From the sequence record NC_027330.1: a DNA stretch of 45,403 nt; one strand, written 5' to 3'. The stretch comes from Escherichia phage ECBP5. The notes under the pieces were generated by a model. The model was not told the DNA's origin. It made no database searches and was given only the letters and a program-made list of their open reading frames with translations. Shown piece after piece: positions 4,604-40,511 of this stretch; position 1 is the stretch's first letter; each line of letters opens with the position of its first letter. The translations under genes were made by a program, and so were the position numbers.

Positions 4604-5008
4604 ATGGAAAACTTTAAAGTAACTGAGCTTGATGATGAATTCATTATTATCCAAGAGTATGCTTGGCAGCGTCCAGAAACTATCACAGTATCTATAACAG
4701 AGACTGATGAAGCTGGTAACACTAAATTGGTCAAAGAGTGGAAAGAGCAGCGCAAGCCAGAGAATAAAGAGCTTCTTGCTGACATCTATATCTTTAATAA
4801 AAGCCAGCTAGATATGATGCGGTGGAATTATCAACTAGGTAACTGTCCTATTACTCAGAAGGGCTTACGTCGCTACTCGCTGGCTTATGGAAGCGGTAAT
4901 AACTGGTTTGGTTGCCCAGCAAGGACAGCTAAGCAGATGCTTAAGAGAGGTGTAGCTATACCTAAAGAGCTGTATGGATTATTCACTCATGTAAATGGAG
5001 CCTACTAA
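4604..5008 (+). CDS. Hypothetical protein (134 aa)
   Basis: ORF with GAGGTGA RBS 6 nt upstream. Confidence 0.6.
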   Translation: MENFKVTELDDEFIIIQEYAWQRPETITVSITETDEAGNTKLVKEWKEQRKPENKELLADIYIFNKSQLDMMRWNYQLGNCPITQKGLRRYSLAYGSGNNWFGCPARTAKQMLKRGVAIPKELYGLFTHVNGAY

Positions 5009-5184
5009 TGGAAGCTTTAATTAAAGGGCAGACCGTGTGGATTCACAGCTACACAGTGGGTCATGGTAACAACATTAAGCTCAAGCAGAGCGTCCACACG
5101 GATAAAGAGAAAGCCGTAGAAGCTTGGCGCTTGTTGGGTGGTTGGTTTAATGAGGCTGTAATTGTTGGAGTTGGTCAACAATGA
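5008..5184 (+). CDS. Small hypothetical protein (58 aa)
   Basis: TAATG overlap with upstream stop and ATGA overlap with downstream start; not in ORF track (<60 aa). Confidence 0.4.
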   Translation: MEALIKGQTVWIHSYTVGHGNNIKLKQSVHTDKEKAVEAWRLLGGWFNEAVIVGVGQQ

Positions 5185-5525
5185 AACTAAGTTATGAAGA
5201 ACTTGAGGCCAAGTGCGCTGCGCTGGCTGCGGAGAATGCGGGGCTGAAGAGTATACAGGAGTGGGCGGTTTCAGGCGTATTTAAATCAGGAGCTAAGGTA
5301 TTCGAGTCAACCAAAGCATCAGGATTTGACACTGACGACTGCCTACATGATGCGGTGCTTGTGATGCTATCTGAGCTGAAAACCCCGGCCACCGACGCTT
5401 TTCTGGCTGAAGTACGGGCGCAGGGTGTGGAGATGTTTGCAAAATATATAGCCCTTTACAATTCCAACTCAGAGCACCATGCGCAATCGTTCGCCGCACA
5501 GCTTCGCAAAGGGGTGCAGTTATGA
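5181..5525 (+). CDS. Hypothetical protein (114 aa)
   Basis: ORF translationally coupled to flanking genes. Confidence 0.6.
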   Translation: MKLSYEELEAKCAALAAENAGLKSIQEWAVSGVFKSGAKVFESTKASGFDTDDCLHDAVLVMLSELKTPATDAFLAEVRAQGVEMFAKYIALYNSNSEHHAQSFAAQLRKGVQL

Positions 5526-5743
5526 AACTTGTATTAGTCCTAGGGCTTGCTGATGGTCGTGTAATTGAGTGGCCTGATGATGCTGCACCTAAGTCTGTTA
5601 AGCCACCTGTCAACCGTGAAGGTGTTACGCAAACTTACAGCCTTGTAGGTTTCGTAGGTAACGAGGCTTACTATATACCTGAGTACACTACAGCAGCTCA
5701 GGCAATCAAACTATTAGTGGGGAGGGTATATGAGGAAGGTTAA
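5522..5743 (+). CDS. Hypothetical protein (73 aa)
   Basis: ATGA overlap with upstream gene. Confidence 0.5.
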   Translation: MKLVLVLGLADGRVIEWPDDAAPKSVKPPVNREGVTQTYSLVGFVGNEAYYIPEYTTAAQAIKLLVGRVYEEG

Positions 5744-5948
5744 TGTTAAGAAAAGTAAAATGAGAGGTACTGGAAATGTTTACCCAGGCCACCTAAGGCC
5801 TGACACCTATGAAAGGTTTACTGTTGAGGCCATGTTTCACCAGTTTATGCAAGAATCAATAGGTGATAAGGTGGAGGTTGTAGCAGTAGTTGAGTACAGA
5901 GATGGCACTGTAGAAACTGTACCATTATCTGCTATTAGCTTTGGGTAA
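5730..5948 (+). CDS. Hypothetical protein (72 aa)
   Basis: GGGAGGG RBS upstream of ATG; followed by a terminator hairpin. Confidence 0.5.
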   Translation: MRKVNVKKSKMRGTGNVYPGHLRPDTYERFTVEAMFHQFMQESIGDKVEVVAVVEYRDGTVETVPLSAISFG

Positions 5949-5954
5949 GTCACA

Positions 5955-5984
5955 GGCAGCTACTTAGGTGGCTGCCTTTTCTTT
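5955..5984 (+). terminator. Rho-independent terminator candidate closing the early/RNAP operon
   Basis: GGCAGC...GCTGCC stem followed by TTTTCTTTT. Confidence 0.5.
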
Positions 5985-5994
5985 TATCTGGCTT

Positions 5995-6078
5995 GTACTA
6001 GTTTGATAGTACAGTTGTTGAGAGTTATTCTCAGTCTAGTATACTAGACTAGACCGAATCGTACTAGTTGGCTAGTAC
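5995..6078. repeat. Cluster of three short palindromes
   Basis: GTACTAGTTTGATAGTAC, AGTCTAGTATACTAGACT and GTACTAGTTGGCTAGTAC in tandem. Confidence 0.7.
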
Positions 6079-6153
6079 AACAGGCGTTCCTACGTGAATA
6101 CTTTAAAATTTTGCGGGCGATTATCCGTCAGAATTTAAAGTTTTCTGAAAATC

Positions 6154-6175
6154 TTTAGGCACTACAATAGGGAGC
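6154..6175 (+). promoter_or_regulatory. Phage-RNAP promoter candidate (consensus copy)
   Basis: TTTAGGCACTACAATAGGGAGC; resembles the T7-class promoter layout (CACTA..ATAGG core, +1 G). Confidence 0.6.
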
Positions 6176-6274
6176 AAGCTAAGTAAGTTAAGTAAGCTAT
6201 AGTAAGCTAACTAAAGCTTAGTAAGCTCCCCTCTTTCCCTCTTTATAGAGGGATATAATATAGTAAGCCTTATC

Positions 6275-6313
6275 AGCCCTCTTGAGTGTAGTAGCTCAGG
6301 AGGGCTTTATTTT
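6275..6313 (+). terminator. Rho-independent terminator candidate
   Basis: 12-bp stem AGCCCTCTTGAG/CTCAGGAGGGCT (one mismatch) followed by TTATTTT. Confidence 0.6.
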
Positions 6314-6331
6314 GTCTAGTACACTAGACTG
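6313..6331. repeat. Palindrome AGTCTAGTACACTAGACT family copy
   Basis: GTCTAGTACACTAGACTGG. Confidence 0.7.
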
Positions 6332-6335
6332 GAGA

Positions 6336-6357
6336 CTTAGGCACTCCAATAGATAAC
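6336..6357 (+). promoter_or_regulatory. Phage-RNAP promoter candidate (variant)
   Basis: CTTAGGCACTCCAATAGATAAC; two substitutions relative to consensus. Confidence 0.45.
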
Positions 6358-6375
6358 TAATCAACGGAGCAGTTT

Positions 6376-6528
6376 ATGCAAACTAGTATTAAGCCAGAGA
6401 AGATGCAGTCTAAGAAGCTACGTAAGCTGAATGAGAAGGAGCAAGAGGAGCTTGCAATCCGTCAGCAGCATAAGGGCAAGCACCATAAGACCCAGCGTGG
6501 CAAGCGCCCTGAGTGGGAGGCTTATTAA
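6376..6528 (+). CDS. Small basic hypothetical protein (50 aa)
   Basis: GGAG RBS upstream; K/R-rich; stop 2 nt before the primase-helicase ATG; not in ORF track. Confidence 0.45.
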   Translation: MQTSIKPEKMQSKKLRKLNEKEQEELAIRQQHKGKHHKTQRGKRPEWEAY

Positions 6529-6530
6529 GT

Positions 6531-8543
6531 ATGTCTATTGTTATGAACCTACCTTGTCCTGCCTGTCAAAAGAATGGTGCAGATAGGCATGGTAAATATT
6601 TGATGGTATTCAGTGACGGAGGAAAACTCTGCTTACATACTCACAACCATGATAACCGTGAGCGCTACTATGAGCCACCAGATGGTAAAGACCCTGTGTT
6701 TGACCGTGAGATTGATGGCAAGGTTCAGTATTCTCCTGAGCAGTTCCGCAAGCTGGAATCAGATGGCAAGCTGAGTGATTCTTTTACTCGTCATCTGGCT
6801 ATGTCTGGTATGAGGATGAAAGACCGCTATGAGATTCTCACTGATGATGAGCGCACAGCTCTGGAGAATGAGTGGCGCATGGACATGGAGTGGTTTGATG
6901 GTCTTTCCTTTAAGTCACTAGCTGACCGTGGCATACACGGACTAATCGCCAAGCTTTATAATGTGCGAGTGGGTCATGATGAGTCTGGTAAAGTCGTCCG
7001 TCACTACTACCCTACTTATGACAGCCAGCTCAATCTGATTGGAGCTAAGTGTCGTACACTGCCTAAAGAATTTATGTTCGGGCATCTTGGTCGTCGCTTT
7101 GGTGATACTGCATTGTTCGGTATTCATACCCAGCAGGCTGTACTTGATAGTGGTACGTTCAAGAAAGGTAAGATGGGTAAGCTGCTGGTAGTTGGCGGTG
7201 AGTGCGATGCGATGGCAGCTCAGCAGATGCTTGTCAAGAGTCTCAATAAGCTTGAGCAGTTCAATGGGCTGAAGTCACTTGATGGCCTGCGTCTGGCTCA
7301 TGTGTGGTCGCCAACTAAAGGCGAGACAGCACTAGAGGAGATAGTAGCTAACCGTGAATACCTCAATCAGTTTGAGGATATTGTATGGGGCTTTGATAAT
7401 GACGATGTAGGCAACAAGCTTAACCTTGACTGCTCCCGCCTGTTCAGACAGAAGTCTAAGTTCTTTAACTACCCAGCTGGGTGCAAGGATGCCAATGACT
7501 GCCTGCTCAAAGGTAGAGAGAAAGAGTTTGTAGATGCATGGTGGCAGCCAGCAGAGGCTAGAGTTAAGGGCAAGCTGCGAGAGGCTGGTCACTACGCTAA
7601 GCGAGCTAAGCAAGCTGTAGAGATGGGCTTGTCATACTTCTGTGAAGCTCTCAACATGATTACATTTGGTATTCGCCTGCGTTACTTGTCTGTGTGGGGT
7701 GCGGGTACTGGTGTTGGTAAGACTGAGATTACTACTCAGCATATTACTAGCCTTATCAAGCAAGGTAAGCCAGTGGTAGCTATCTACCTTGAGAACAGTC
7801 CAGAAGAAGTCCTCAAGATGGTGGCAAGCCAGATGGCTAACAAGGACTTTATGAGTCCACCACTAGGTGAGGATGATGAGTACGATGCATCTAGGGATTA
7901 CACTCAAGAGGAATTAGACGCTACAATAGATGACTTAGTAGCAACTGGCTTGCTTATCATACCGGACCTTGAAGGTAGTAAGGATGTAAACGTAATAATG
8001 GAAGTCCTTGAAGATGCATTAGCATTAGGCTACCAGTATTATGTTATTGATAACCTGACAGCCTTTGAGCACTACGTAGATGGTAAGGTTCAAGTGGGTG
8101 TAGCTGCTATTGATGAGACTATGAAGCGCATCGGTACGTTTAAGGATGAGCATGACGTCAACATTATGCTTCTCACTCACTTAAGTAGACCAGAGAAAGG
8201 CCGTGACCCTCATGAGCTTGGTGGTGAAGTCTATATCACTGACTTACGTGGTGCAGGCTCTATCAGCTTTTGGGCTAATGGTGTATGGGGCATCGAGCGT
8301 AATACACAGGCTGAAGCTATCAGTGACAAGTGTACTACGCTGCTGCGTAACCTCAAGTCTCGTGGTGTAGGCCACAAGGTAGGCTCCACAGTTGTGCTCC
8401 GCAAGGACATTACAACTGGTGAGTTTGAGTACCTTGAAGGTGTTCATGAGCTGCCTCAGGTTGGCAGGAAGAAGAAGGAGAGCAAGCGTGATGCGCAAGC
8501 TCAACGGTTTATTGATGATGCAGATACTGACGGAGAGTTCTAA
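6531..8543 (+). CDS. Bifunctional DNA primase-helicase (T7 gp4-like)
   Basis: N-terminal Cys4 zinc ribbon CPACQ...CLHTHNH, TOPRIM-like acidic motifs, Walker A GAGTGVGKTE, acidic C-terminus ending in Phe (DTDGEF); start set at ATG 6531 (GGGAGG RBS) rather than GTG 6513. Confidence 0.92.
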   Translation: MSIVMNLPCPACQKNGADRHGKYLMVFSDGGKLCLHTHNHDNRERYYEPPDGKDPVFDREIDGKVQYSPEQFRKLESDGKLSDSFTRHLAMSGMRMKDRYEILTDDERTALENEWRMDMEWFDGLSFKSLADRGIHGLIAKLYNVRVGHDESGKVVRHYYPTYDSQLNLIGAKCRTLPKEFMFGHLGRRFGDTALFGIHTQQAVLDSGTFKKGKMGKLLVVGGECDAMAAQQMLVKSLNKLEQFNGLKSLDGLRLAHVWSPTKGETALEEIVANREYLNQFEDIVWGFDNDDVGNKLNLDCSRLFRQKSKFFNYPAGCKDANDCLLKGREKEFVDAWWQPAEARVKGKLREAGHYAKRAKQAVEMGLSYFCEALNMITFGIRLRYLSVWGAGTGVGKTEITTQHITSLIKQGKPVVAIYLENSPEEVLKMVASQMANKDFMSPPLGEDDEYDASRDYTQEELDATIDDLVATGLLIIPDLEGSKDVNVIMEVLEDALALGYQYYVIDNLTAFEHYVDGKVQVGVAAIDETMKRIGTFKDEHDVNIMLLTHLSRPEKGRDPHELGGEVYITDLRGAGSISFWANGVWGIERNTQAEAISDKCTTLLRNLKSRGVGHKVGSTVVLRKDITTGEFEYLEGVHELPQVGRKKKESKRDAQAQRFIDDADTDGEF

Positions 8544-8728
8544 TGATTGACACCCTTATTAAAATGTTCAAATTGGCGAGGGCTAACCCCGATGCCTTCT
8601 GTGATGGCGGTACAGTAGGTGAAAAGTGCTCTGGCATTAGTTGCCATGACTGCCCCTTCTCCTCAACCTCTAATCTTAATGCAACAATTGTTGAGCTTGA
8701 GAAAGCTCAGGAGAAACAAGATGTCTGA
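8543..8728 (+). CDS. Small Cys-rich hypothetical protein (61 aa)
   Basis: TAATG overlap with the helicase stop. Confidence 0.45.
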   Translation: MIDTLIKMFKLARANPDAFCDGGTVGEKCSGISCHDCPFSSTSNLNATIVELEKAQEKQDV

Positions 8729-8966
8729 AGTTAAAATCAGTGTACAAGTTTTCCCTAAACTTGCAGTAGAAGGGGAGGAGCATACTGTTACCCGTGTAGT
8801 TGCAACAGCTGACTGTGGTGATACAGGCTATTCAAGCGAGGAGTACCTTGTAGACCAAGCAGTAGAGAAGCTTGAAGGGTTTAATCGCGAGGATGTTATT
8901 GCAGCAACTAAGCGTGAAATACTGCGCGAGCTGACTGTTATCCTTGTAGCTAACGGAGTGCTATAA
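8721..8966 (+). CDS. Hypothetical protein (81 aa)
   Basis: GGAGAAAC RBS before ATG 8721; the ORF-track start at 8619 would overlap the upstream gene. Confidence 0.5.
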   Translation: MSEVKISVQVFPKLAVEGEEHTVTRVVATADCGDTGYSSEEYLVDQAVEKLEGFNREDVIAATKREILRELTVILVANGVL

Positions 8967-9145
8967 TGAAACGCATCACTGTTAAGAAAGGCGGCTTGTG
9001 GTACTTCATCACCCTGTTCACTCGCTATGGCGAGAAGCTCATGGTTAAGAACGTAACTGATGAGGAAACTGTCAGTCAGTATGGTCTTAGTTATGTAGTA
9101 TCAGAAGTTTACAAGGCACACAACGAGGTAATAGGTAACGTATGA
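8966..9145 (+). CDS. Small hypothetical protein (59 aa)
   Basis: Start/stop overlaps on both sides; not in ORF track. Confidence 0.4.
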   Translation: MKRITVKKGGLWYFITLFTRYGEKLMVKNVTDEETVSQYGLSYVVSEVYKAHNEVIGNV

Positions 9146-9366
9146 AGCCATTCAAAGATGTTGAAGATGGAGAGGTTTTCGTTGTTGATGGTGGTTTTGA
9201 ATTAAAGCGAGTCTCTGAATCCTCTGAGTATAATGCAGTGTTTACTGATTCAACTGATATAGGTGTTAATATCCCCTTTGATGAGACTACTTATACAGTA
9301 GATGAGTTTTCAAAATTACCAAAACCTGAACAGGAGATACTATTTGAAACCAGCAATTCTTACTAA
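9142..9366 (+). CDS. Acidic hypothetical protein (74 aa)
   Basis: ATGA overlap with upstream ORF. Confidence 0.5.
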   Translation: MKPFKDVEDGEVFVVDGGFELKRVSESSEYNAVFTDSTDIGVNIPFDETTYTVDEFSKLPKPEQEILFETSNSY

Positions 9367-9385
9367 CGCTAACGTTGGCCTCAAG

Positions 9386-9541
9386 ATGTCTGACCTTGAG
9401 GCTCGTGCTCGTGCTGGCGACCCTTGGGCGCAGGCTCAGCTGACTAAGCAAGCTATGGGCTTTGCTAACGCCATGCAAGCTGATGTCCGTGAGGGAGCTG
9501 ACATGCAAGACCGCAAGGACTTGCTGCTTATTAATCGATAA
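9386..9541 (+). CDS. Small hypothetical protein; alternative start at 9302
   Basis: In-frame ATGs at 9302 (overlapping upstream gene) and 9386; neither has a strong RBS. Confidence 0.4.
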   Translation: MSDLEARARAGDPWAQAQLTKQAMGFANAMQADVREGADMQDRKDLLLINR

Positions 9542-9578
9542 GCCACTTCGGTGGCTTTAGTATAGTGTACTAGACTGG
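9541..9578 (+). terminator. Hairpin with TTCG loop plus partial palindrome-family copy
   Basis: GCCAC-TTCG-GTGGC followed by TTT, then AGTGTACTAGACTGG. Confidence 0.4.
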
Positions 9579-9585
9579 AGTTAAT

Positions 9586-9855
9586 ATGAAGAAGACTCAT
9601 GTAGAGTTGTGGGCTTTTGGCAGTAATGGTCAGTTAGTTGCAACTGGTCTGGTCACACCAGCTGGTGTTTGCGGCTCTTTGTTTAAGAACTTCCCATGTG
9701 CTTATGGCGAGAGTGCAAGTCCACTAAGTGGTATGATTAAAGTTGATGGGAACTTTGGGTATGGTGTCACTGATAAATCAGAGCTTGAGTGGAAGTTACG
9801 TGCTAAGCGAACCTACCGTGCAGTCCGTTTCCAACGTGTTATTGTAGACTTCTGA
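9586..9855 (+). CDS. Hypothetical protein (89 aa)
   Basis: ORF following an intergenic hairpin. Confidence 0.55.
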   Translation: MKKTHVELWAFGSNGQLVATGLVTPAGVCGSLFKNFPCAYGESASPLSGMIKVDGNFGYGVTDKSELEWKLRAKRTYRAVRFQRVIVDF

Positions 9856-9863
9856 GGTGAATC

Positions 9864-10815: not shown

Positions 10816-10826
10816 CGTGAGGTAAT

Positions 10827-13433: not shown

Positions 13434-13461
13434 TAACAAACTAACTAACCAAGGAGTTATT

Positions 13462-14567: not shown

Positions 14568-14609
14568 TCTAGTACACTAGACTGAAGCCGTACTAGTTAG
14601 CTAGTACGG
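14564..14609. repeat. Two adjacent palindromes (family copies)
   Basis: TCTAGTCTAGTACACTAGACTGA and CCGTACTAGTTAGCTAGTACGG. Confidence 0.7.
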
Positions 14610-14610
14610 T

Positions 14611-14633
14611 ATTAGGCACTACAATAGGAATAG
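14611..14633 (+). promoter_or_regulatory. Phage-RNAP promoter candidate (consensus copy)
   Basis: ATTAGGCACTACAATAGGAATAG. Confidence 0.6.
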
Positions 14634-14750
14634 AATGCTCAACTTATGCATCCCTGTATCTGGCGGTCGCTACAAAGGATACAGGTTGCCTATAGGCTGT
14701 AATGGTGTCCAAAGCCAACGGCTTGGGTGGTGCATAAGCATGAGCATTCT
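14634..14750 (+). other. Structured element between tandem promoters (nested inverted repeats); candidate small RNA or replication origin
   Basis: Outer inverted repeat ATGCTCAACTTATGCA / TGCATAAGCATGAGCAT enclosing hairpins CCTGTATC..GATACAGG and CCAAGCC..GGCTTGG; no ORF. Confidence 0.35.
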
Positions 14751-14755
14751 TAACC

Positions 14756-14779
14756 TATTAAGCACTACAATAGGAATAG
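14756..14779 (+). promoter_or_regulatory. Phage-RNAP promoter candidate
   Basis: CTATTAAGCACTACAATAGGAATAG. Confidence 0.55.
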
Positions 14780-14814
14780 TAGAATAGCCACACCGTGTGT
14801 GCTCCCTTCTCAAC

Positions 14815-14838
14815 CTATTAAGCACTAAATAGATATAG
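14815..14838 (+). promoter_or_regulatory. Promoter-like repeat with 2-bp deletion in the core (possibly weak or inactive)
   Basis: CTATTAAGCACTAAATAGATATAG; about 35-bp duplication of the preceding promoter block. Confidence 0.35.
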
Positions 14839-14875
14839 TGAATATCTCTTTCAAACTTTATGAGGAATTAATATT

Positions 14876-15241: not shown

Positions 15242-15279
15242 GCCCCATTGGTCAATTCGACCTTTGGGGCTTATTTTTG
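15242..15279 (+). terminator. Rho-independent terminator
   Basis: GCCCCATTGGTCAATTCGACCTTTGGGGC hairpin followed by TTATTTTTG. Confidence 0.65.
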
Positions 15280-15290: not shown

Positions 15291-15413
15291 ATGCCTGTTT
15301 TCAAAAGGGTTTGTATGCTGTGTGGTACAGCGTTTTCTCCGGTTAAGAAAAGTCCATTCCTTTGCATAAGGTGTTACAGGAGTTGTGTTAAAGAGAGGGC
15401 TACTAATGTTTGA
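15291..15413 (+). CDS. Small zinc-ribbon-like protein (40 aa)
   Basis: GGAGGG RBS 5 nt upstream; CxxC...CxxC (CMLCG...CIRCY); stop overlaps the exonuclease start; not in ORF track. Confidence 0.4.
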   Translation: MPVFKRVCMLCGTAFSPVKKSPFLCIRCYRSCVKERATNV

Positions 15414-16491
15414 TAACTTCGACTTTGGGGCTGAGGTAACTGAACGTGTAAGCCCTGTAAAGCTGTGGCCTACTGAGGGTAGTGTGGTTGGCTTAGTAGA
15501 TGCTGACCTGTTGCCATATAACATTGCTTATGGCCTTGACCCGCTGAAGGTATTGCGAGCACAGAACAGAGTAGAGTCAGGTGACTGCTCCAGTATTAGC
15601 GAGACACCAGAGTTTATTGATGCTGCTGAGTCTATGGCTACCCGCATGAACAACTGGCTTGAGGAAGCTGGCTGTGATGCTGCCATTCCATATATGACGA
15701 AATCAGATAGCAACTTCAGGCTTGATGTAGCTTTCTCCAGACCGTACAAAGGTCAGCGTAAGAAGGAGAAGCCACCATTCTTCTATGAGTTGCGTGACTT
15801 CCTTATCAGCCACATGGGTGCTGTGATGTCAGATGGTGAGGAGGCTGATGACCTTATCTCTATGGAGGCTGAGCGTCGCAACAAGCTGCTTGAGGAACAG
15901 GGCATTGTATTAGGCTCACCTACTCATAAAGAGTTCTGTGACTTTGTTATCATCTCATCTGACAAGGATAGCCGCATCACAGCTGGCAGACACTATGACC
16001 CTTATCACATGAAGCTCACCTTTGGTACACCTGTTGGTGAGCTTGAGCCTGTTTATAAAGACGGGAAGATTAAGACTATCAAGGGTAGCGGCTTGCGCTT
16101 CTTTTATGCTCAGCTTCTAATGGGCGACCAGATTGATAATTACACTGGTATCCCTCGCTACAGGTTGCAGAAGGTCTACGAGCTGCTTGGTCAGCTTAAG
16201 ACAGAGCAAGAGCTTTATTATGCTGTACTTGAAGCTTATAAAGATAAGTATGGCAAGGGTATGGTGGTGGAAAACTACCGTGGAACTAAGAAGTTCTATG
16301 ATGACTACATGGATGACTTTGGAGTACCGCCACCTGATTATGAACTTTGGAAAGGCAAGAAAGCTTTCCTCACACCTTATCAGCTGATGGTAGAGCAAGG
16401 GAGACTTGCGTACATGCAGAAGTTTAAGGGTGACATCTGGAGAGCTAATTGCAAGCTTCCATCAGGTGGAGACTTGAGCGCATGGAGTTAA
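15406..16491 (+). CDS. 5'-3' exonuclease (T7 gp6-like, FEN family)
   Basis: VGLVDADLLPY, IISSDKDSRI and GDQIDNYTGIP parallel T7 gp6 segments; start at ATG 15406 (AGAGAGG RBS). Confidence 0.88.
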   Translation: MFDNFDFGAEVTERVSPVKLWPTEGSVVGLVDADLLPYNIAYGLDPLKVLRAQNRVESGDCSSISETPEFIDAAESMATRMNNWLEEAGCDAAIPYMTKSDSNFRLDVAFSRPYKGQRKKEKPPFFYELRDFLISHMGAVMSDGEEADDLISMEAERRNKLLEEQGIVLGSPTHKEFCDFVIISSDKDSRITAGRHYDPYHMKLTFGTPVGELEPVYKDGKIKTIKGSGLRFFYAQLLMGDQIDNYTGIPRYRLQKVYELLGQLKTEQELYYAVLEAYKDKYGKGMVVENYRGTKKFYDDYMDDFGVPPPDYELWKGKKAFLTPYQLMVEQGRLAYMQKFKGDIWRANCKLPSGGDLSAWS

Positions 16492-34929: not shown

Positions 34930-34936
34930 GAGGCGT

Positions 34937-35857
34937 ATGAACTTCTCTTTTACTCGTGATACTGGTGACGGAGTTAAGACAGTATTCACAATGTCCTTTG
35001 CAGGACAGGATGAGGGCTATTTGAATGCCTCTAATATTCACGTACTTGTTAATGGTGTAGAGGTTCCATTTACCATTAACCCAACTGACCCTAATAAGGT
35101 ATACCTATCAACTGCCCCAGCTAATGGGGCTGATGTCCTTATCAGGCGTATCATGCCTAAGAACGTGCCTTACTCTGACTTCAAGAACGGAAACCCATTT
35201 AGTCAGGATACGCTGAACTATACCCAGCTACAGCAGTTGTATGTGACACAAGAGCTACTTGATGGTTTCCTTCCAGATGGCTTCTACTTTAAGCAAGATG
35301 TCAACATGGGTGGTTATAACATCAAGAACTTGGGTGATGCTGTAGACCCTGATGATGCAGTTAAGAAAGAGGTAACTGATGATTTGGGTAATAGGGTAAG
35401 CTCTCTAGAAGATAATCTTACTGATACCTCGTTAACTACCGTTCCTTGGCGGTTTGTTGCAACTGGTGGAGAGATTACAATATCACCTCCTTACTCTTTC
35501 ACAAATGCCCTTCTCTACATCAATGGCGTTACACAGACCATAGGTGCAGATTATGCATACACAGTATCTGGTAATCAGCTACATCTACCTGAGCCACTAA
35601 GAGCTGGAGATGAGGTGTTTGTTATCATTGGAACCAACATACAGCCGCCTAGTGATTTAATCTCCTATGATGGGGCTATTATTGCATATGCGAGTATGGT
35701 GACTGGTGTACCTGTTCAGCAGGTCTATATACCTGTTGTTGGCCTCACCGTAAGTAACGCACTGGTTTTTATTGATAATGGCGTTATTCATACCCTTAAT
35801 GCACCTGCTAGCGGGGTTATCACTTCCATAGCTTGGCCTGATATTGTTATATCATAG
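34937..35857 (+). CDS. Tail fibre / adaptor protein with T7 gp17 N-terminal-like domain
   Basis: 306 aa; N-terminal segment pattern resembles the T7 gp17 tail-attachment domain. Confidence 0.7.
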   Translation: MNFSFTRDTGDGVKTVFTMSFAGQDEGYLNASNIHVLVNGVEVPFTINPTDPNKVYLSTAPANGADVLIRRIMPKNVPYSDFKNGNPFSQDTLNYTQLQQLYVTQELLDGFLPDGFYFKQDVNMGGYNIKNLGDAVDPDDAVKKEVTDDLGNRVSSLEDNLTDTSLTTVPWRFVATGGEITISPPYSFTNALLYINGVTQTIGADYAYTVSGNQLHLPEPLRAGDEVFVIIGTNIQPPSDLISYDGAIIAYASMVTGVPVQQVYIPVVGLTVSNALVFIDNGVIHTLNAPASGVITSIAWPDIVIS

Positions 35858-35865
35858 GAGGTAAC

Positions 35866-36099
35866 TTGATTCATGAGAAAGTAGGTGAGGTTGCAGCTGA
35901 AGCATTTAAGGCCACACCACCAACTGTTGTTGTTGGCCTGAACATCTTAGGTTACTCAATCTCTGAGTGGGTTCAGGTAGCTACACTTATCTATATCTTC
36001 TTACAGATGCATGTGCTAGCTATTAAGAATATAAGTTCATATAAATCCATGTGGGATTATGTTAAGGAGGTTATTCGTGGCAAGCGTAAGCAAGAGTAA
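35866..36099 (+). CDS. Class II holin (T7 gp17.5-like)
   Basis: 77 aa; TTG start after AGGAGG; hydrophobic SISEWVQVATLIYIFLQ resembles T7 gp17.5 SLNEWFYVAAIAYTVVQ; basic C-terminus. Confidence 0.6.
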   Translation: MIHEKVGEVAAEAFKATPPTVVVGLNILGYSISEWVQVATLIYIFLQMHVLAIKNISSYKSMWDYVKEVIRGKRKQE

Positions 36100-36403
36100 T
36101 AAGAATTCAGCCACAGAGGATGATGTAGGCCTTATCCATAAGCTTGTTACTAAGGTCATCACTAAGAAGCTTGAGAAGTGGTTAGAGCTTATTGAGCAGG
36201 GTGGTGACGTAGATTTAGTTGTGGATATGAAACAGCTCAAGTCTGCCATCGACTGGTGTGACAAGAATGGCATTGTATGTGCTGACCCAGCTGAGCAGAG
36301 TGACAATGAGCTTGGTGATAAACTGTCTGAGATTCGTAAAGCTCAACACGCTCGTGGTGTTGTCGTTCCATTCAAAGAGGATGAGGAGGGTTATGGTACA
36401 TGA
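36077..36403 (+). CDS. Terminase small subunit (T7 gp18-like)
   Basis: GTG start 6 nt after AAGGAGG; about 108 aa; directly upstream of and overlapping the large terminase gene. Confidence 0.6.
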   Translation: MASVSKSNKNSATEDDVGLIHKLVTKVITKKLEKWLELIEQGGDVDLVVDMKQLKSAIDWCDKNGIVCADPAEQSDNELGDKLSEIRKAQHARGVVVPFKEDEEGYGT

Positions 36404-38250
36404 GGCGTGTTAACAGGAACGACAAGAAAGCACAGCTAGAAATGTGGGAGGAGCTTGAAGCGATACAGAAAGCTTTTCCATTTACTGTGCAAGGCTTGTG
36501 GCTGTTTGCCTCACTTGTGCTTGAGAAGACTATTGTAGGCTCTCCTCACCTTAATCGCACACAGAAAGACATTCTTAGCTTCCTGCTTAACGGCGGGAAG
36601 TATATAGGCATACAGGCAAGCCGTGGTATGACCAAGACAGTTATGGCAGCTATCCTATGCTGCTTCTGTCTTATCCACATGCCACACTATCGTATCATTG
36701 TATTCTCACAGAACGGTAAGCGAGCTAAAGAGATTGCAGGCTGGGTAGTTAAAATCTTCTATGCTATAGACATCCTTGAGGTATTGCAGCCAGATACCTA
36801 TGCTGGCGACCGTTCATCCATTGAAGCTTTTGATATTCATTGGTGCTTCCGTGGTGCTGATAAGTCACCATCTGTCACCTGCTATTCTATCGAGTCAGGT
36901 GCGCAGGGTGCTCGTGCTGACCTTATCCTTGCTGATGATATTGAGTCGCTACAAAACTCCCGTACAGCTCAGAGCCGTGAGTGGCTGCTTGAGCAGTCAT
37001 TAGAGTTTGAGTCGATTAACCAGTATGGTCGTATCATCTATCTAGGTACACCTCAGGGTGTTGAGTCTATCTACAACACGCTTCCAGCTCGTGGCTACGT
37101 TATGCGTATCTGGCCTGGCCGTTATCCAACAGCTGAGCAGCTTGAGTTCTATGGCAATGCTCTGGCTCCATTATTCCGTAAGGATATTGAAGCTGACCCA
37201 AGCTTGCAAAGCGGTGGTGGGCTTGATGGTACTATGGGCAAGCCAACAACACCTGCTATGTATGATGAGGAGTTGTTGCAAGAGAAGGAGATGAGGCAAG
37301 GTCTTGCTAAGTTCATGTTGCAGTTCATGGTTCACACAGGTATGTCTGACCGTGACCGCTTCAAGCTTAAGCTAGAGAATCTGGTACTAATGAACTTCAA
37401 TGCCATGCAAGGTGCGGTTATGCCTGTGTGGAACAGTGACCAACGTAGCATGTGGCAAGCTGCCCCTCGCTTTGGTACACGTCCACAAGACAGGTTCTAC
37501 TTTGCTATGCAGCAGCCATATATCATGCGTGACTTTGACCTAACTGTTATGTTCATTGACCCAGCTGGTGGTGGCTCCCGCTCACAGGATGAGATGGGTT
37601 ATGCGATAACCAAGCTACTCGGTACTTATGTCTACATCTATGATGTTGATGGTGTCAAGGGTGGGTATGAACAATCAGAGCTGATGAAGCTTGTACAAGC
37701 TGCTAAGGATGCTAAGGTCAACGTTTGCTATGTTGAAAAGAACTATGGTAACGGTGCTCACTTTGCAATGCTTAAGCCACTGTTTGAGAAGTTTTACCCA
37801 GAGTGTAGGCTTGAGGAAATTAACTCAACAGGTCAGAAGGAACTACGTATCATCGATACACTAGAACCACTGCTGGGTCAGCATCGCTTGGTAGTATCAC
37901 AGACAGCTGTTATGAAGGACTACAACAGCATTCAGAAGTACCCAGCAGAGGTCAAGATGACTTACAGCTGCTTCTACCAACTTGCTCACATAACGAGCGA
38001 CCGTGGGGCGCTGAGGCACGATGACCGCTTAGACGCACTGGCTGGGGCTGTGGCGCAGATTGTCAACTACATCGACTATGACCAAGAGAAGGCCGAGAAA
38101 GACCGACAGGCGGAGGCTGACAAGCATTTCTTTGAGGTTATGGCTAACCCTAATGGTTTCGTCCACACGATGATGCACGGTGGTGATTTTATGAGCTATG
38201 TTGAGCAGCAAAACACCGGAGCCAACGCACTCAAGAAATACTTTAATTAA
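36400..38250 (+). CDS. Terminase large subunit (T7 gp19-like)
   Basis: 616 aa; position after holin/small subunit; ATPase-like LILADDIESL segment. Confidence 0.8.
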   Translation: MRRVNRNDKKAQLEMWEELEAIQKAFPFTVQGLWLFASLVLEKTIVGSPHLNRTQKDILSFLLNGGKYIGIQASRGMTKTVMAAILCCFCLIHMPHYRIIVFSQNGKRAKEIAGWVVKIFYAIDILEVLQPDTYAGDRSSIEAFDIHWCFRGADKSPSVTCYSIESGAQGARADLILADDIESLQNSRTAQSREWLLEQSLEFESINQYGRIIYLGTPQGVESIYNTLPARGYVMRIWPGRYPTAEQLEFYGNALAPLFRKDIEADPSLQSGGGLDGTMGKPTTPAMYDEELLQEKEMRQGLAKFMLQFMVHTGMSDRDRFKLKLENLVLMNFNAMQGAVMPVWNSDQRSMWQAAPRFGTRPQDRFYFAMQQPYIMRDFDLTVMFIDPAGGGSRSQDEMGYAITKLLGTYVYIYDVDGVKGGYEQSELMKLVQAAKDAKVNVCYVEKNYGNGAHFAMLKPLFEKFYPECRLEEINSTGQKELRIIDTLEPLLGQHRLVVSQTAVMKDYNSIQKYPAEVKMTYSCFYQLAHITSDRGALRHDDRLDALAGAVAQIVNYIDYDQEKAEKDRQAEADKHFFEVMANPNGFVHTMMHGGDFMSYVEQQNTGANALKKYFN

Positions 38251-38283
38251 TGGCAATAATCCCTTAGTTTTCATAACTTTGGG

Positions 38284-38305
38284 ATTAGGCACTACAATAG
38301 GAGAA
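38284..38305 (+). promoter_or_regulatory. Phage-RNAP promoter candidate (consensus copy)
   Basis: ATTAGGCACTACAATAGGAGAA followed by AGTAAG-repeat leader. Confidence 0.6.
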
Positions 38306-38422
38306 AGCTAAAGTAAGTACAGTAAGTAAACAGTAGCTATAAATAGCTATAGTAAGCTTTAGTTAGCCTAAGTAGTAACCTACTTATTGTCTTATTATAT
38401 TCTTTATAAGGAGAGCTATTAG

Positions 38423-39034
38423 ATGGCTACATATACCACCAGCATACTTAAGCTTATAAAAGGCTCTTTGTCTTCTGGTAAACTGCCTAAGGCTAACTCA
38501 CAAGGTGACTTAGTTGACTCTAAGTTAACTGATGATGGCACAAAGCTTGCTTACAATGGTAATGAAGTAACAGACTCTCGCACACAGCGTAAAAAGACTG
38601 AGGTCTATTACACTGGTGTTTCTGTTACTCTCACTGCGGGTACTCAGTACAATTTAGTAAACCTGTTAAAAGCTCTTACAGCAAACTCAGGTACACTTGC
38701 ACCATTCTTTGACACTACATCCAACAAACTCAAGGTTATTAATGATAATGCTAGTTGCATGTTCAAACTTAACCTAGTAGGCAACTGGGCGAACGCATCA
38801 TCAGATAGGAGTCTTCAGGTTGACTTTGTAGGAACAAACGGCAACAGGTTAGTTGCTAACAGGTCTTCAGCTACCACAGCTGATTCATTAACACTATCTA
38901 CTTTCTTATCTGTTGATAAGAATGGTAACTTAGCAACAAATGGCAGCACTGTTAACTTAACAGCTGTTGGTATCAACTTCACAATTACATCTGCGCTTCT
39001 TATTGCTGAGCAGGTAACTAAAGAATCTTTCTAA
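38423..39034 (+). CDS. Hypothetical late protein, Ser/Thr/Asn-rich (203 aa)
   Basis: AAGGAGAG RBS; own promoter upstream. Confidence 0.6.
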   Translation: MATYTTSILKLIKGSLSSGKLPKANSQGDLVDSKLTDDGTKLAYNGNEVTDSRTQRKKTEVYYTGVSVTLTAGTQYNLVNLLKALTANSGTLAPFFDTTSNKLKVINDNASCMFKLNLVGNWANASSDRSLQVDFVGTNGNRLVANRSSATTADSLTLSTFLSVDKNGNLATNGSTVNLTAVGINFTITSALLIAEQVTKESF

Positions 39035-39046
39035 GGAGATTAACAT

Positions 39047-39325
39047 ATGCCACGTAATATTACTGGTGATTCACCTAAGTCTGTACAAACTCAGTCCGTA
39101 TCTATGCTGCCAGTGGCTATTGTCACTCAGGCAAACTTGGCTAGCGCAGCTCACCCTATCAACGATACTACCAAGTCTGGCAAGCAAGTTGGTGGTCTGG
39201 TCTACGTTAAGCTGACTACTGGTGGTAATGTCTGCATCGCAATTGCTCAGGGTTCTGGCGCTACTGATAAGTGGCTGGTACTTGGCATGGATGCTGCTGG
39301 CTTCATTGAAGTAACACCAGCTTAA
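39047..39325 (+). CDS. Hypothetical protein (92 aa)
   Basis: AAGGAGA RBS. Confidence 0.55.
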   Translation: MPRNITGDSPKSVQTQSVSMLPVAIVTQANLASAAHPINDTTKSGKQVGGLVYVKLTTGGNVCIAIAQGSGATDKWLVLGMDAAGFIEVTPA

Positions 39326-39335
39326 TAAGGTTGGT

Positions 39336-39356
39336 CAGTCTAGTACGCTAGACTGG
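39336..39356. repeat. Palindrome family copy, terminator-like
   Basis: CAGTCTAGTACGCTAGACTGG followed by CCTCTTTCT. Confidence 0.6.
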
Positions 39357-39368
39357 CCTCTTTCTACT

Positions 39369-39926
39369 ATGAATACATTACTAATGCTACTTGCGTTAAT
39401 AAATCCTGTTCAGAAGTTAGAGCAAGATTTATCAAAGCACATAGAAATTTATACACACCAAGGAGGTTCCGAGTTGAATCGCAGTCAATTCCAGCGCTAT
39501 ATATTGCGCCCTACCCTTGAGAAGCTTGGTCTATACTCGCCACAAGCTGAGCGCTTGCTGACTATGATTGTAGCCCATGAATCTCTCAAGGGTCATTATA
39601 TTGTACAGACCACAGGGCAGGCTAAAGGCTTGTACCAGATGGAGAATGCAACACACGATGATGTGCTGCGTTGGGTTCACAATAACCGTCCTGAGCTTTA
39701 CCGTGAGATTGTAGAAATGGGTGATGGTCAGCCGTCAGCAGTTAAGATGATTACTGACTTAGACTATGCAACCGCTATGGCTCGCGCGTTCTTCCTCCGC
39801 TTTCCTGAGCCGTTGCCGACAGGCAACGACGAGGAGCTTGCAGCATACGCTAAGAAGCGCTGGAACACTCACTTAGGTAAGGCCACTCCTGACGACTACT
39901 TGAAGGCTTATCAGTCTTGGAAGTAA
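39369..39926 (+). CDS. Lytic transglycosylase-like protein (putative endolysin)
   Basis: AHESLKG...GQAKGLYQME fits the ES...GLxQ transglycosylase signature (compare T7 gp16 N-terminus TESRF...GPLGMMQF); short N-terminal hydrophobic stretch. Confidence 0.7.
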   Translation: MNTLLMLLALINPVQKLEQDLSKHIEIYTHQGGSELNRSQFQRYILRPTLEKLGLYSPQAERLLTMIVAHESLKGHYIVQTTGQAKGLYQMENATHDDVLRWVHNNRPELYREIVEMGDGQPSAVKMITDLDYATAMARAFFLRFPEPLPTGNDEELAAYAKKRWNTHLGKATPDDYLKAYQSWK

Positions 39927-40038
39927 GTTGCAGCAGCTGGTGTCAGCTTAAGTGGCAGGAGGCAGTTGAGTCAGGTGATGACTTAGCTGCCAGTGACTAT
40001 CTAAAGCTCTATGAGCTTTGGAGTAGCAGAGGTATGTA

Positions 40039-40353
40039 ATGAGTACAAGCAATATACCTAGCTTAGGTGGCTTCACTCCTATTGAGTCTCTTGTAAAAGG
40101 CGGTAGTGCTAAAGACATCTTCAATCCAATGAACATCTGGAATGATGGTGCAGGTGTATTACAGAAGCCATCGTCCTTGTTTACCAAGGAGACTATTACT
40201 GGAACAGGTAAGGACACTGAGAAGTCTCGTACTAAAGCTCAGGAAGAGGAAGATAGTGCTGCTGCTAAGCAAAGCTCTAGGGATGCTAACAAGTGGCTCA
40301 ACTGGACACCTAGTAGAAGTAGCACTAATACTAAAACTGGTTTATCTATTTAG
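40039..40353 (+). CDS. Hypothetical protein (104 aa)
   Basis: ORF with internal acidic patch. Confidence 0.5.
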   Translation: MSTSNIPSLGGFTPIESLVKGGSAKDIFNPMNIWNDGAGVLQKPSSLFTKETITGTGKDTEKSRTKAQEEEDSAAAKQSSRDANKWLNWTPSRSSTNTKTGLSI

Positions 40354-40361
40354 GAGTAATC

Positions 40362-40511
40362 ATGGGTAAGATTTTTAAGAATAAGAAAGTAGTAGCAGCT
40401 GCTGTTACCTTAGTTCTTGTCATCTTGGGTACAGCCCTAGGGACTGACTTGGGTGCAGATACTGCAAATAGCGTTACTGACCTTATCTGCACTATTGTAA
40501 GCTGTCAGTAA
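40362..40511 (+). CDS. Small membrane protein (49 aa)
   Basis: TAGGAG RBS; single hydrophobic helix VVAAAVTLVLVILGTALG; not in ORF track. Confidence 0.4.
   Translation: MGKIFKNKKVVAAAVTLVLVILGTALGTDLGADTANSVTDLICTIVSCQ

Follow-up and report, generated by a model that had tools for sequence, protein, structure and literature searches.

Six open reading frames (ORFs) shorter than 60 amino acids (aa) in Escherichia phage ECBP5 are, with a probability that we place at about 85%, genuine small genes of a Gajwadongvirus-like phage, and a role can be proposed for each. The window analysed here, the whole 45,403-nucleotide (nt) stretch of NC_027330.1, is a circularly permuted Autographiviridae genome with every gene on the + strand, showing ~93% identity to Vibrio phage JSF38 and ~90% to Pectobacterium phage PP99 (genus Gajwadongvirus). 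By sequence comparison, it is a Gajwadongvirus-like podophage genome of the T7/SP6 type with its genes packed on a single strand. Its transcripts would be polycistronic and made by the phage RNA polymerase, and the six ORFs would be translated from their own GGAG-type ribosome-binding sites (RBSs) and/or by termination-reinitiation at TAATG/ATGA junctions. The set comprises five conserved small protein genes and one singleton, all ordinary phage biology.

Existence and conservation of the small genes

234..374, + strand: 46-aa Lambda_Kil-family peptide gene, early region (Pfam, PHROG, relatives)
5008..5184, + strand: 58-aa conserved protein (phrog_3955), after the RNA polymerase gene (PHROG, orthologues)
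6376..6528, + strand: 50-aa very basic protein (pI 10.1; phrog_13307), directly upstream of the primase/helicase gene (PHROG, relatives)
8966..9145, + strand: 59-aa accessory protein gene, variable cassette slot flanked by the gp18-like and gp19-like genes (metagenomic homologues)
15291..15413, + strand: 40-aa CxxC-x13-CxxC zinc-ribbon-like ORF from a 115-nt insertion at the exonuclease start codon (alignment to relatives)
40362..40511, + strand: 49-aa single-pass membrane protein, holin-family, phrog_4712 (PHROG, annotation of relatives)

All six ORFs start with ATG and were found at the coordinates and lengths of the original prediction, which had also described TAATG or ATGA overlaps and/or Shine-Dalgarno sequences; reading the junctions bore this out, the RBSs being of the GGAG type. 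Their reported absence from the supplied ORF track fits their size, since all are below 60 aa and a track cut at that length would miss them. ORF 234-374 falls outside the range assigned to that earlier finding (5008-40511). When + strand ORFs of at least 60 aa were placed first and the remaining gaps examined, the six small ORFs occupied 76-99% of six gaps left empty, and just two further gap ORFs of at least 40 aa combined an ATG with an RBS-like motif (14635-14787 and 42568-42696). The filling of gaps by the six ORFs is therefore more than chance.

Loss of the reading frames in relatives had been named as the observation that would count against these genes. The frame is conserved for five of the six, while 15291-15413 is missing from the relatives that cover its site. 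Orthologues of 234-374, 5008-5184, 6376-6528 and 40362-40511 occur in 8-13 related genomes, mostly as annotated CDSs. In the claimed frame, pN/pS is 0.17 (234-374), 0.18 (5008-5184), 0.09 (6376-6528), 0.43 (8966-9145) and 0.24 (40362-40511), compared with at least 0.94 off-frame, the claimed frame being lowest in all five cases. Pairwise omega is 0.0-0.5, variable sites show an excess at third codon positions, and the codon-usage log-likelihood is positive for all six ORFs. Thus, the description of these ORFs as typical genuine small phage genes is supported by five that keep both frame and length in relatives and have a frame-specific pN/pS. Coordinates, junctions, conservation, purifying selection, HMM family membership and insertion boundaries were observed directly; from these we infer the biochemical function of each of the six products. 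It is very improbable that the set includes chance open frames in spacers, kept merely through conservation of the surrounding DNA, a reading that concerns 6376-6528 in particular. For the other ORFs, the frame-specific pN/pS excludes purely DNA-level conservation, and zero Rfam families matched across the whole window.

Early and middle region proteins

ORF 234-374 forms a TAATG junction with the preceding ORF, overlaps the one starting at 361 by 14 nt and has just a weak, G-rich RBS. The product matches Pfam PF06301 (Lambda_Kil) with 35.2 bits, above the gathering cut-off of 27.6, and phrog_3924 'Kil' with an E-value of 9e-7. It is 46 aa long, compared with 47 aa for lambda Kil, and the two are 45% identical across the helix-turn-helix core and keep a G-D inter-helix turn, whereas the C-terminal third is unrelated. 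The settings also differ: 234-374 is an early-region gene in a lytic podophage of the T7/SP6-like kind, whereas kil of lambda, a temperate siphophage, is part of the pL operon. Lambda Kil is an inhibitor of FtsZ assembly (PMC3961180, PMC11762379). Homology makes it most likely that the 234-374 product acts early in infection by preventing assembly of the host's FtsZ ring. Eleven relatives carry orthologues of 46-49 aa, and the copy in Klebsiella phage Z1 is annotated 'Kil protein'; the PP99 copy is frameshifted, which counts against the ORF being a genuine gene. In T7, gp0.4 is an early FtsZ inhibitor (see also PMC13423816), a role that the Kil-family peptide would fill in ECBP5. Both are small early-region Autographiviridae peptides with the same presumed target, yet they belong to different families; the likeness would be one of functional analogy, with no sequence relationship claimed.

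ORF 5008-5184 is bounded by TAATG upstream and ATGA downstream, with GGAG 7 nt ahead of its ATG, and matches phrog_3955 (E 2e-19); its orthologues include PP99 gp12, JSF38 orf25 and MR4 gp07. An AF2 model of the product has a beta-beta-alpha-beta arrangement (pLDDT 75), with matches limited to uncharacterised small phage proteins. ORF 6376-6528 has GGAG 6 nt ahead of its ATG and is followed by the primase/helicase ATG at 6531, 2 nt past its stop; the product matches phrog_13307 (E 5e-24) and is 96-100% identical at the aa level in 12 relatives. Both ORFs are annotated in PP99, JSF38 and MR4. PP99 gp12, gp14 and gp52 are direct orthologues of 5008-5184, 6376-6528 and 40362-40511, respectively, with counterparts in JSF38, MR4, Roth32 and Z1, all at 87-100% aa identity and with the same neighbours and overlaps. 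Differences are confined to the sequence level, apart from one additional small gene that PP99 and several others have, and the window does not, between the gp14 orthologue and the primase gene. Judged by family membership, 5008-5184 and 6376-6528 are conserved phage families of early/middle proteins with no function assigned, and they are probably small host-takeover or replication accessory factors.

At 6376-6528, synonymous sites are also unusually conserved, as is ~120 nt of upstream non-coding DNA, and part of the conservation may therefore act at the nucleic-acid level. The alternative would be a conserved cis-acting element, such as a promoter-proximal leader, origin or processing site, in place of a protein gene. 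Twelve relatives with 7-20% divergence elsewhere are 96-100% identical across the block 6256-6528, whose non-coding part holds a repeated palindromic hairpin (6310-6334), and dS inside the ORF is just 0.08-0.16. However, variable sites by codon position number 2/1/10, placing 10 of 13 at third positions, and the low in-frame pN/pS is accompanied by off-frames with zero synonymous-type change. Furthermore, the frame survives three in-frame indels in a diverged Edwardsiella phage copy (55 aa, 52% identical, both termini conserved). Together with the protein family match and the lack of any Rfam match in the window, this makes an element without a protein product very improbable, and 6376-6528 is read here as a protein gene.

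Cassettes at gene junctions

9142..9366, + strand: 74-aa ORF (phrog_2183), a further cassette at the gp19-like gene start codon (PHROG, tblastn, relatives)
9344..9541, + strand: gp19-like 65-aa gene, ATG now TTG (comparison with PP99 gp19, MR4 gp15 and JSF38 orf34)
15242..15278, + strand: hairpin and T-run following the gp25-like gene and preceding the exonuclease RBS, (near-)identical in all relatives
15393..15399, + strand: GAGAGGG RBS for the displaced exonuclease start, inside the inserted ORF (sequence reading)
15406..16491, + strand: 361-aa 5'-3' exonuclease gene, orthologous to PP99 gp26 and JSF38 orf41; the 40-aa ORF overlaps its start (ATGTTTGA)

ORF 8966-9145 has TAATG upstream, ATGA downstream and GGAG 7 nt ahead of its ATG. 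No homologues were found in GenBank phages, and seven clusters of homologues, all 59 aa long and 90-98% identical, lie on ~45-kb metagenomic phage contigs. Its selection signal is the weakest of the five conserved ORFs and indicates moderate constraint (pN/pS 1.21 and 0.94 in the two other frames; variable sites by codon position 8/4/9), and its coding log-likelihood is in the typical range of real genes. The same slot is occupied in MR4 (gp14) and JSF38 (orf33) by a 58-aa gene of near-equal length with the same TAATG and ATGA junctions, yet the sequences are unrelated (no tblastn match), making them alternative cassettes and not orthologues. By these comparisons, 8966-9145 is an accessory gene that is gained and lost in a cassette slot. 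Insertion boundaries in this region fall at 8973-9344 and 9151-9344, and the 194-nt insertion 9151-9344 is missing from three genomes (L009, L011 and L015). The adjoining ORF 9142-9366 matches phrog_2183 (E 3e-26) and, by tblastn, Klebsiella T4-like phages at 48-50% identity; the inserted cassette supplies the RBS AGGAG (9332-9336) of the gp19-like gene at 9344.

At the exonuclease start, homology to all relatives ends at 15293 and restarts at 15406 (insertion 15294-15405), downstream of a hairpin present in both MFE and centroid folds. ORF 15291-15413 uses the exonuclease's own GGAGG and ATG, with GGAGGG 3 nt ahead of the start, and its stop overlaps the exonuclease ATG at 15406 (ATGTTTGA). 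The predicted CxxC...CxxC motif is indeed present, with Cys at residues 8, 11, 25, 28 and 32; such a C4 pattern has a frequency of 3e-4 among random open 40-codon frames and is missing from all 541 of the window's other open frames, and zinc-ribbon profiles match weakly. All 14 relatives covering the site lack the ORF altogether, with no disrupted copy, so conservation neither confirms nor refutes it; the case for a putative coding ORF is made by the inherited RBS and ATG together with the statistically non-random C4 motif. On this alignment, 15291-15413 is a lineage-specific cassette, unique to the ECBP5 genome and set precisely at the exonuclease ATG. The exonuclease's original RBS and ATG would now drive translation of a 40-aa C4 zinc-ribbon peptide, while exonuclease translation would be restored via the internal GAGG and the overlapping stop/start.

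It seems unlikely, on balance, that the 40-aa ORF is translated but without function, as what is left of a larger mobile gene (for example a homing endonuclease or a different cassette) that formerly occupied the hot spot upstream of the exonuclease and has been mostly deleted. Other genomes do carry genes at this site: Z1 and RCIP0089 have an HNH endonuclease there, MR4 has a Dam methylase, and L012 and L015 have ORFs of 84-88 aa. The site is empty in nine relatives; moreover, C4 zinc fingers are common sub-domains in phage nucleases. The ORF is also a singleton, with no close homologues in the 14 relatives or any database searched, and its codon-usage score (+6 to +7.6) is ~2.4 sd under typical in-frame 40-codon pieces. 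Against a remnant, it has no DNA or protein similarity to the slot's other cassettes (local alignment comparable to shuffled sequences; zero tblastn matches) and is intact from a strong inherited RBS and ATG to an exactly positioned overlapping stop; its C4 motif is complete, and the GAGG that it provides for the exonuclease is well spaced. In L012 and L015, too, the cassette in this slot has GAGG at its end, 6-7 nt ahead of the exonuclease ATG. The sole candidate homologue, a 46-aa hypothetical protein of Kosakonia phages Kc166B/Kc237 (QQV88696), aligns without gaps from Met1 with 15 of 40 residues identical and shared CxxC-x13-CxxC spacing (database E-value 0.9), and its alignment score is reached by just 7 of 200,000 Cys-fixed shuffles. 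This full-length alignment suggests that stand-alone mini-proteins of this kind exist as genes, although QQV88696 differs in its longer, acidic C-terminus and its context within a run of small early genes. A self-contained cassette gene would resemble phage 'morons', gene-boundary cassette exchange and the homing-endonuclease hot spots of T7-like phages, where small ORFs also sit exactly at gene junctions, and the same junctions in relatives of ECBP5 hold HNH endonucleases or other genes. The ECBP5 cassettes differ in that they contain neither promoter nor terminator; each is translated from the RBS and ATG already in place and supplies the displaced gene with a new RBS.

A putative holin-family protein in the lysis region

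40511..40720, + strand: 69-aa putative i-spanin, N-terminal hydrophobic segment (translation, position; orthologue of PP99 gp53)
40590..40799, + strand: 69-aa putative o-spanin, lipobox LMITSGC, in a different frame from the i-spanin that it overlaps (translation)

ORF 40362-40511 has AGGAG 5 nt ahead of its ATG and a downstream TAATG that couples it to the spanin genes, the o-spanin orthologues (PP99 gp54, Z1, MR4 gp53) being annotated as Rz-like spanins. The membrane helix proposed earlier was recovered as a single helix at residues 10-27 (Kyte-Doolittle 18-residue mean 2.54), preceded by a basic N-terminal end and followed by an acidic C-terminal tail with two invariant Cys. The product matches phrog_4712 'holin' (E 1e-23) and phrog_9987, also holin, and orthologues in PP99 (gp52), Z1 and DT115P1 carry the same annotation; the label is purely annotation by homology. 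It shares small size and one transmembrane helix with the phrog_4712 or class III-like holins and T7 gp17.5 (PF10746), as well as a lysis-cassette position alongside endolysin and spanins, but differs from them in the charge and Cys content of its termini and in matching no Pfam holin model.

These differences leave room for a possible, if doubtful, alternative in which the 49-aa product is a real membrane protein other than a holin (an antiholin, lysis regulator, spanin accessory or superinfection-exclusion factor). The holin would then be the product of a separate T7-type gene, 35866-36099, which lies at the T7 gp17.5 position, scores 24.3 bits against PF10746 (cut-off 25.4) and has counterparts annotated as holin in Z1 and Roth32. 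Yet both PHROG matches are annotated as holins, and the gene directly precedes the spanin pair with the endolysin gene nearby. Single-TMD holins with an N-in/C-out topology are also known in class III. The 40362-40511 product is thus most likely an N-in/C-out single-pass membrane protein that acts as a holin, or as a holin partner, in timing lysis.

Six small genes between the longer open reading frames

All six open reading frames (ORFs) of fewer than 60 codons that the original prediction put forward as genuine phage genes are present in the window sequence exactly as described, with the junctions and ribosome-binding sites (RBSs) attributed to them, and their interpretation as ordinary small phage genes is supported.

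Table. The six small ORFs, their junctions and their RBSs.
234-374, plus strand: 46 aa; TAATG with the upstream ORF, 14-nt overlap with the ORF at 361; RBS a weak G-run only
5008-5184, plus strand: 58 aa; TAATG upstream, ATGA downstream; GGAG 7 nt before the ATG
6376-6528, plus strand: 50 aa; GGAG 6 nt before the ATG; primase ATG at 6531
8966-9145, plus strand: 59 aa; TAATG upstream, ATGA downstream; GGAG 7 nt before the ATG
15291-15413, plus strand: 40 aa; GGAGGG 3 nt before the ATG; stop overlapping the exonuclease start as ATGTTTGA, exonuclease ATG at 15406
40362-40511, plus strand: 49 aa; AGGAG 5 nt before the ATG; TAATG downstream

Relatives already carry annotations for four of these genes; a fifth is new among GenBank phages yet found in metagenomic relatives, and the sixth is an orphan. 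After greedy placement of plus-strand ORFs of at least 60 aa, the six gaps were otherwise empty and were filled to 76-99% by the six ORFs, while the only further gap ORFs of at least 40 aa with an ATG and an RBS-like motif were 14635-14787 and 42568-42696. No study of these small genes was found in the literature on Gajwadongvirus, and the NCBIfam search returned nothing useful for them. The main value lies in annotation: with ORFs cut off at 60 aa, at least six real genes of a 45-kb phage go unseen, among them those for a probable inhibitor of host cell division and for a membrane protein of lysis, which bear on host killing and phage therapy.

Related genomes and conservation of the reading frames

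All long ORFs of the window lie on the plus strand; besides structural genes and, near 39.4-40.8 kb, a lysis cassette, the genome has genes for a primase/helicase, a DNA polymerase and an exonuclease, in addition to the following gene:
1961-4594, plus strand: single-subunit RNA polymerase
Bases 1-208 are 100% identical to bases 45196-45403, which points to a circularly permuted assembly of a genome of ~45.2 kb (about 45,195 bp); ORF 43-234 belongs to a 76-aa ORF that begins near 45193, of which it forms the 3' part. Using megablast with the first 20 kb, the window was matched by Vibrio phage JSF38 (89% covered, 93.3% identical), Pectobacterium phage PP99 of the genus Gajwadongvirus, Autographiviridae (86% covered, 90.1% identical), several Klebsiella phages, Pseudomonas phage MR4 and, at ~82%, Edwardsiella phages. 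Eight annotated GenBank relatives formed the comparison set, together with six metagenomic loci carrying a homologue of 8966-9145.

The original prediction was to stand or fall with conservation of the reading frames in relatives, and five of the six ORFs (234-374, 5008-5184, 6376-6528, 8966-9145 and 40362-40511) are conserved in this way, in length as well as frame, with pN/pS below 1 in the claimed frame only. By tblastn, orthologues were found in all eight GenBank relatives for 234-374 (87-98% identity, the PP99 copy being frameshifted), 6376-6528 (96-100%, and 52% in an Edwardsiella phage) and 40362-40511 (76-100%), and in seven of the eight for 5008-5184 (87-95%); neither 8966-9145 nor 15291-15413 had a counterpart in the eight. 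Most GenBank copies of the ORFs at 234, 5008, 6376 and 40362 are annotated CDSs, as in PP99 (gp12, gp14 and gp52 'holin'), JSF38 (orf20, orf25, orf128 and orf10), MR4 (gp01, gp07, gp10 and gp52) and phage Z1 ('Kil protein' and 'holin'). Pooled pN/pS in the claimed frame was 0.17 (234), 0.18 (5008), 0.09 (6376), 0.43 (8966) and 0.24 (40362), as compared with 0.94 or more when these alignments were read in either of the other two frames, and pairwise omega (Nei-Gojobori) was 0.0-0.27 in most pairs and 0.3-0.5 for 8966-9145. Likewise, variable sites fell mainly on third codon positions (positions 1/2/3: 10/5/27 for 234, 12/5/29 for 5008, 2/1/10 for 6376 and 15/7/27 for 40362), a bias that was weaker in 8966-9145 (8/4/9). 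The biochemical roles named for these genes, Kil and holin, are read from homology.

A Kil-type gene and a lysis-associated gene

By its sequence, the 234-374 product is a member of the Lambda_Kil family, matching Pfam PF06301 (35.2 bits, E 8e-9; gathering cut-off 27.6) as well as three 'Kil' families of PHROG (E 9e-7 to 3e-4). It has 46 aa as compared with about 47 aa for lambda Kil, the helix-turn-helix core of which, needed for activity, includes a Gly-Asp turn (PMC11762379). Lambda Kil blocks FtsZ assembly in a ZipA-dependent manner (PMC3961180). Filamentation is the outcome of such inhibition of the FtsZ ring. In the alignment with lambda Kil, 13 of 29 core residues are identical (45%), 'FLGDKKM' of the phage product pairs with 'FIGDEKM' of lambda (G19-D20), and the Gly-Asp turn between the two helices is kept. 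The 234-374 product is therefore a probable host cell-division inhibitor as judged from homology. The role of gp0.4 is known in T7, and by analogy the 234-374 product would be its counterpart in this T7-like phage and fill that role. In PP99 (locus L001), the frameshifted Kil orthologue at 2707-2845 runs for 27 aa to a stop and carries no annotation, being either a pseudogene or a sequencing error.

The 49-aa product of 40362-40511 has a basic N-terminus, one predicted transmembrane segment at residues 10-27 (Kyte-Doolittle 18-residue mean 2.54) and an acidic tail with two invariant Cys. Residues 1-49 match the 50-position profile of phrog_4712 (E 1.1e-23), for which the label 'holin' is an annotation only, and phrog_9987 is matched with E 8e-4; no curated holin model of Pfam or NCBIfam matched at E up to 1. 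The gene is TAATG-coupled to an overlapping pair of ORFs, for which the hydrophobic N-terminal segment of one and the lipobox of the other suggest an i-/o-spanin pair, and the lysis genes considered here are as follows:
39369-39926: transglycosylase-type endolysin gene
40511 (start): putative i-spanin, 69 aa, N-terminal hydrophobic segment
40590 (start): putative o-spanin, 69 aa, lipobox LMITSGC
35866-36099: T7-type holin candidate, PF10746 at 24.3 bits, just under the 25.4 cut-off
Two holin-like genes are thus seen, one of gp17.5 type (35866-36099) between the tail fibre and small terminase genes and one (40362-40511) adjoining the spanins. Since no curated model matches the latter and a second, T7-type candidate exists, it may serve in lysis as a holin, opening membrane lesions by which the endolysin is released or activated at a programmed time, or as an antiholin or another partner.

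The ORFs at 5008-5184 and 6376-6528

The product of 5008-5184 belongs with phrog_3955 (E 2e-19), a family of unknown function. Its AF2 model shows a beta-beta-alpha-beta arrangement (pLDDT 75), and has no significant match among PDB structures; its only BFVD matches are with small proteins or protein domains from enterobacterial phages, all uncharacterised. In the related locus L015, the homologue (6183-6503) is fused to a C-terminal extension, giving 106 aa, and in the related loci L011-L013 an unrelated 54-aa ORF takes this position (about 6583-6747); the region following the RNA polymerase gene is thus another slot for cassettes. An insertion at 5189-5521 (region 5181-5525) is specific to the window, no relative having it, and its product is a 114-aa protein (phrog_492, E 2e-32); a 62-nt stretch is 95% identical to an 'EaE' gene of Salmonella P22-like phages.

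The product of 6376-6528 is very basic (pI 10.1, 14 K+R) and matches phrog_13307 (E 5e-24), also of unknown function, with no match in a PDB sequence search. That the ORF codes for protein is shown by its third-position bias and by the in-frame indels of the Edwardsiella copy. Yet across 12 relatives, which elsewhere differ by 7-20%, the block of ~270 nt comprising the leader and the 50-aa ORF (6256-6528) keeps 96-100% identity, and its synonymous sites are also unusually conserved, suggesting an overlapping cis-acting element or recent recombinational spread. The ORF may therefore be under an extra constraint at the nucleic-acid level.

The slot between the gp18-like and gp19-like genes

No GenBank phage homologue of 8966-9145 was found by DNA or tblastn search, and whole-window blastn showed 8973-9344 to be missing from all eight GenBank relatives. 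In a search of 5.8 billion proteins, however, homologues appeared as seven clusters with 90-98% identity, all exactly 59 aa long and located on ~45-kb contigs of Logan and ENA assemblies. The product has no family match, and its AF2 model (pLDDT 68) has no significant PDB match and matched only uncharacterised phage proteins in BFVD. The junction at which the gene lies differs among relatives: the gp18-like and gp19-like genes are joined directly by TAATG in PP99, an unrelated 58-aa ORF lies between them in MR4 and JSF38, the 59-aa ORF does so in metagenomic relatives, and in the window the 59-aa ORF is accompanied by a second insertion, of 194 nt (9151-9344), the 74-aa product of which (phrog_2183) has homologues among Klebsiella T4-like phages. 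Each of these cassettes begins at the resident ATGAA. Because of the cassette insertion, the displaced gp19-like gene (9344-9541) begins at 9344 with TTG in place of the ATG of all relatives, and its AGGAG (9332-9336) is supplied by the cassette; a 79-aa form of the protein could arise from an in-frame ATG at 9302.

An orphan ORF at the exonuclease start

For 15291-15413, whole-window blastn showed that 15294-15405 is missing from all eight GenBank relatives. The insertion spans 115 nt (15294-15408) and separates the resident ATG from codon 2 of the exonuclease gene, so that the 40-aa ORF uses the RBS and ATG of the exonuclease and ends at a TGA made by exonuclease codons 2-3. Translation of the ORF is almost certain, given that the RBS and ATG it has inherited are strong. 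In nine relatives, a 55-nt spacer with a conserved hairpin, T-run and GGAGG leads directly to the exonuclease ATG, while elsewhere the slot is occupied by an HNH endonuclease (Z1 and RCIP0089), a Dam methylase (MR4) or ORFs of 84-88 aa (the related loci L012 and L015). The inserted cassette brings GAGAGGG (15393-15399) 6 nt before the new exonuclease ATG, and those of L012 and L015 end likewise. The interrupted hairpin itself, GCCCCAttGGTCaattcGACCttTGGGGC then TTATTTTT (15242-15278), lies between the gp25-like gene and the exonuclease RBS in all relatives; it looks like a terminator or pause site, and a simple terminator scan did not flag it because of the internal loop.

The 40-aa product most likely is a genuine mini zinc ribbon, its cysteines being arranged as C8-x2-C11-x13-C25-x2-C28 in two CxxC knuckles. 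Among random open 40-codon frames, a fraction of only 3e-4 contains the pattern CxxC-x8-25-CxxC, and none of the 541 other open frames of the window does; this rarity counts in the ORF's favour. No curated zinc-ribbon family scored above its cut-off, the values being 17.9 bits for zf-FPG_IleRS (cut-off 21.3) and 18.1 for FYDLN_acid (23.9), and PDB matches were weak (uS14/S29, E 0.008-0.07). From Met1 onwards, the product can be aligned gaplessly with an annotated 46-aa protein of Kosakonia phage Kc166B, with 15/40 identities and the same Cys spacing, at a score reached by only 7 of 200,000 shuffles with Cys fixed; allowing for the database search, this is suggestive of a relationship.

No orthologue was found in phage DNA by blastn, and tblastn against phages gave matches at E 0.5-0.9 only. 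Word searches of 5.8 billion proteins, with the single sequence and with a profile including the Kosakonia protein, yielded none, and exhaustive HMMER against 1.84 billion representatives yielded only long multi-repeat Cys-rich proteins. Degenerate coding patterns recovered none in viral, metagenome and genome contig collections, and tblastn gave no specific match among plasmids. A remnant would fit with the failure of every orthologue search and with the codon-usage score, which is positive and low, but the ORF is without similarity to the other cassettes of the exonuclease slot, and we regard such an origin as unlikely compared with a genuine mini zinc ribbon. As for particular sources, DNA local alignments with the HNH, Dam and 84-88-aa slot cassettes were no better than with shuffled sequence, and an HNH remnant was further rejected as there was neither a tblastn match to the HNH gene of Z1 or RCIP0089 nor an HNH Pfam match. 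The zinc-ribbon orphan makes a small candidate for functional tests.

Cassette insertion at start codons

The two window-specific insertions at 15294-15408 (exonuclease ATG) and 9151-9344 (gp19-like ATG) share one rule, in which the cassette sits exactly at the resident start codon, its own small ORF takes the resident RBS and ATG, and its 3' end carries a replacement GAGG/AGGAG RBS. The overlapping stop and start at the cassette end would re-couple the displaced gene. As two lineage-specific cassettes, they illustrate accessory mini-gene swaps at gene junctions of T7-like phages. It could be speculated that such docking at start codons is a general, possibly targeted way of shuffling orphan mini-genes among Autographiviridae, although we consider this quite improbable; if true, the 40-aa zinc ribbon might, rather than debris, be a new mini-protein with an activity, e.g., as a regulator or partner of the exonuclease. 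The small genes leave current understanding unchallenged, and only this docking pattern is mildly interesting.

Repeats and further small ORFs

A 24-nt motif, TATTAGGCACTACAATAGGAATAG, occurs in nine copies (6153, 13413, 14610, 14756, 18008, 24008, 34886, 38283 and 43487) and is presumably the promoter consensus of the phage RNA polymerase. A palindromic hairpin, GTCTAGTACACTAGAC(TGGAG), is found in six intergenic copies just upstream of gene starts (6030, 6310, 9556, 14563, 39334 and 43687) and has the appearance of a site for RNase III processing or of a terminator/stabiliser element; Rfam gave no RNA family in the window, this hairpin included. Within 14568-14875, two promoter copies 146 nt apart flank the 50-aa ORF 14635-14787, which is of doubtful status. 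ARAGORN found no tRNA in the window, while Roth32 and Z1 have a tRNA-Ser at the position matching 14568-14875. Three further small ORFs lie outside the set originally predicted:
39917-40039: 40 aa, TTG start; annotated as MR4 gp50, also in Z1 and DT115P1
42568-42696: 42 aa; GGAG RBS
43589-43687: 32 aa, hydrophobic; AGGAGG RBS
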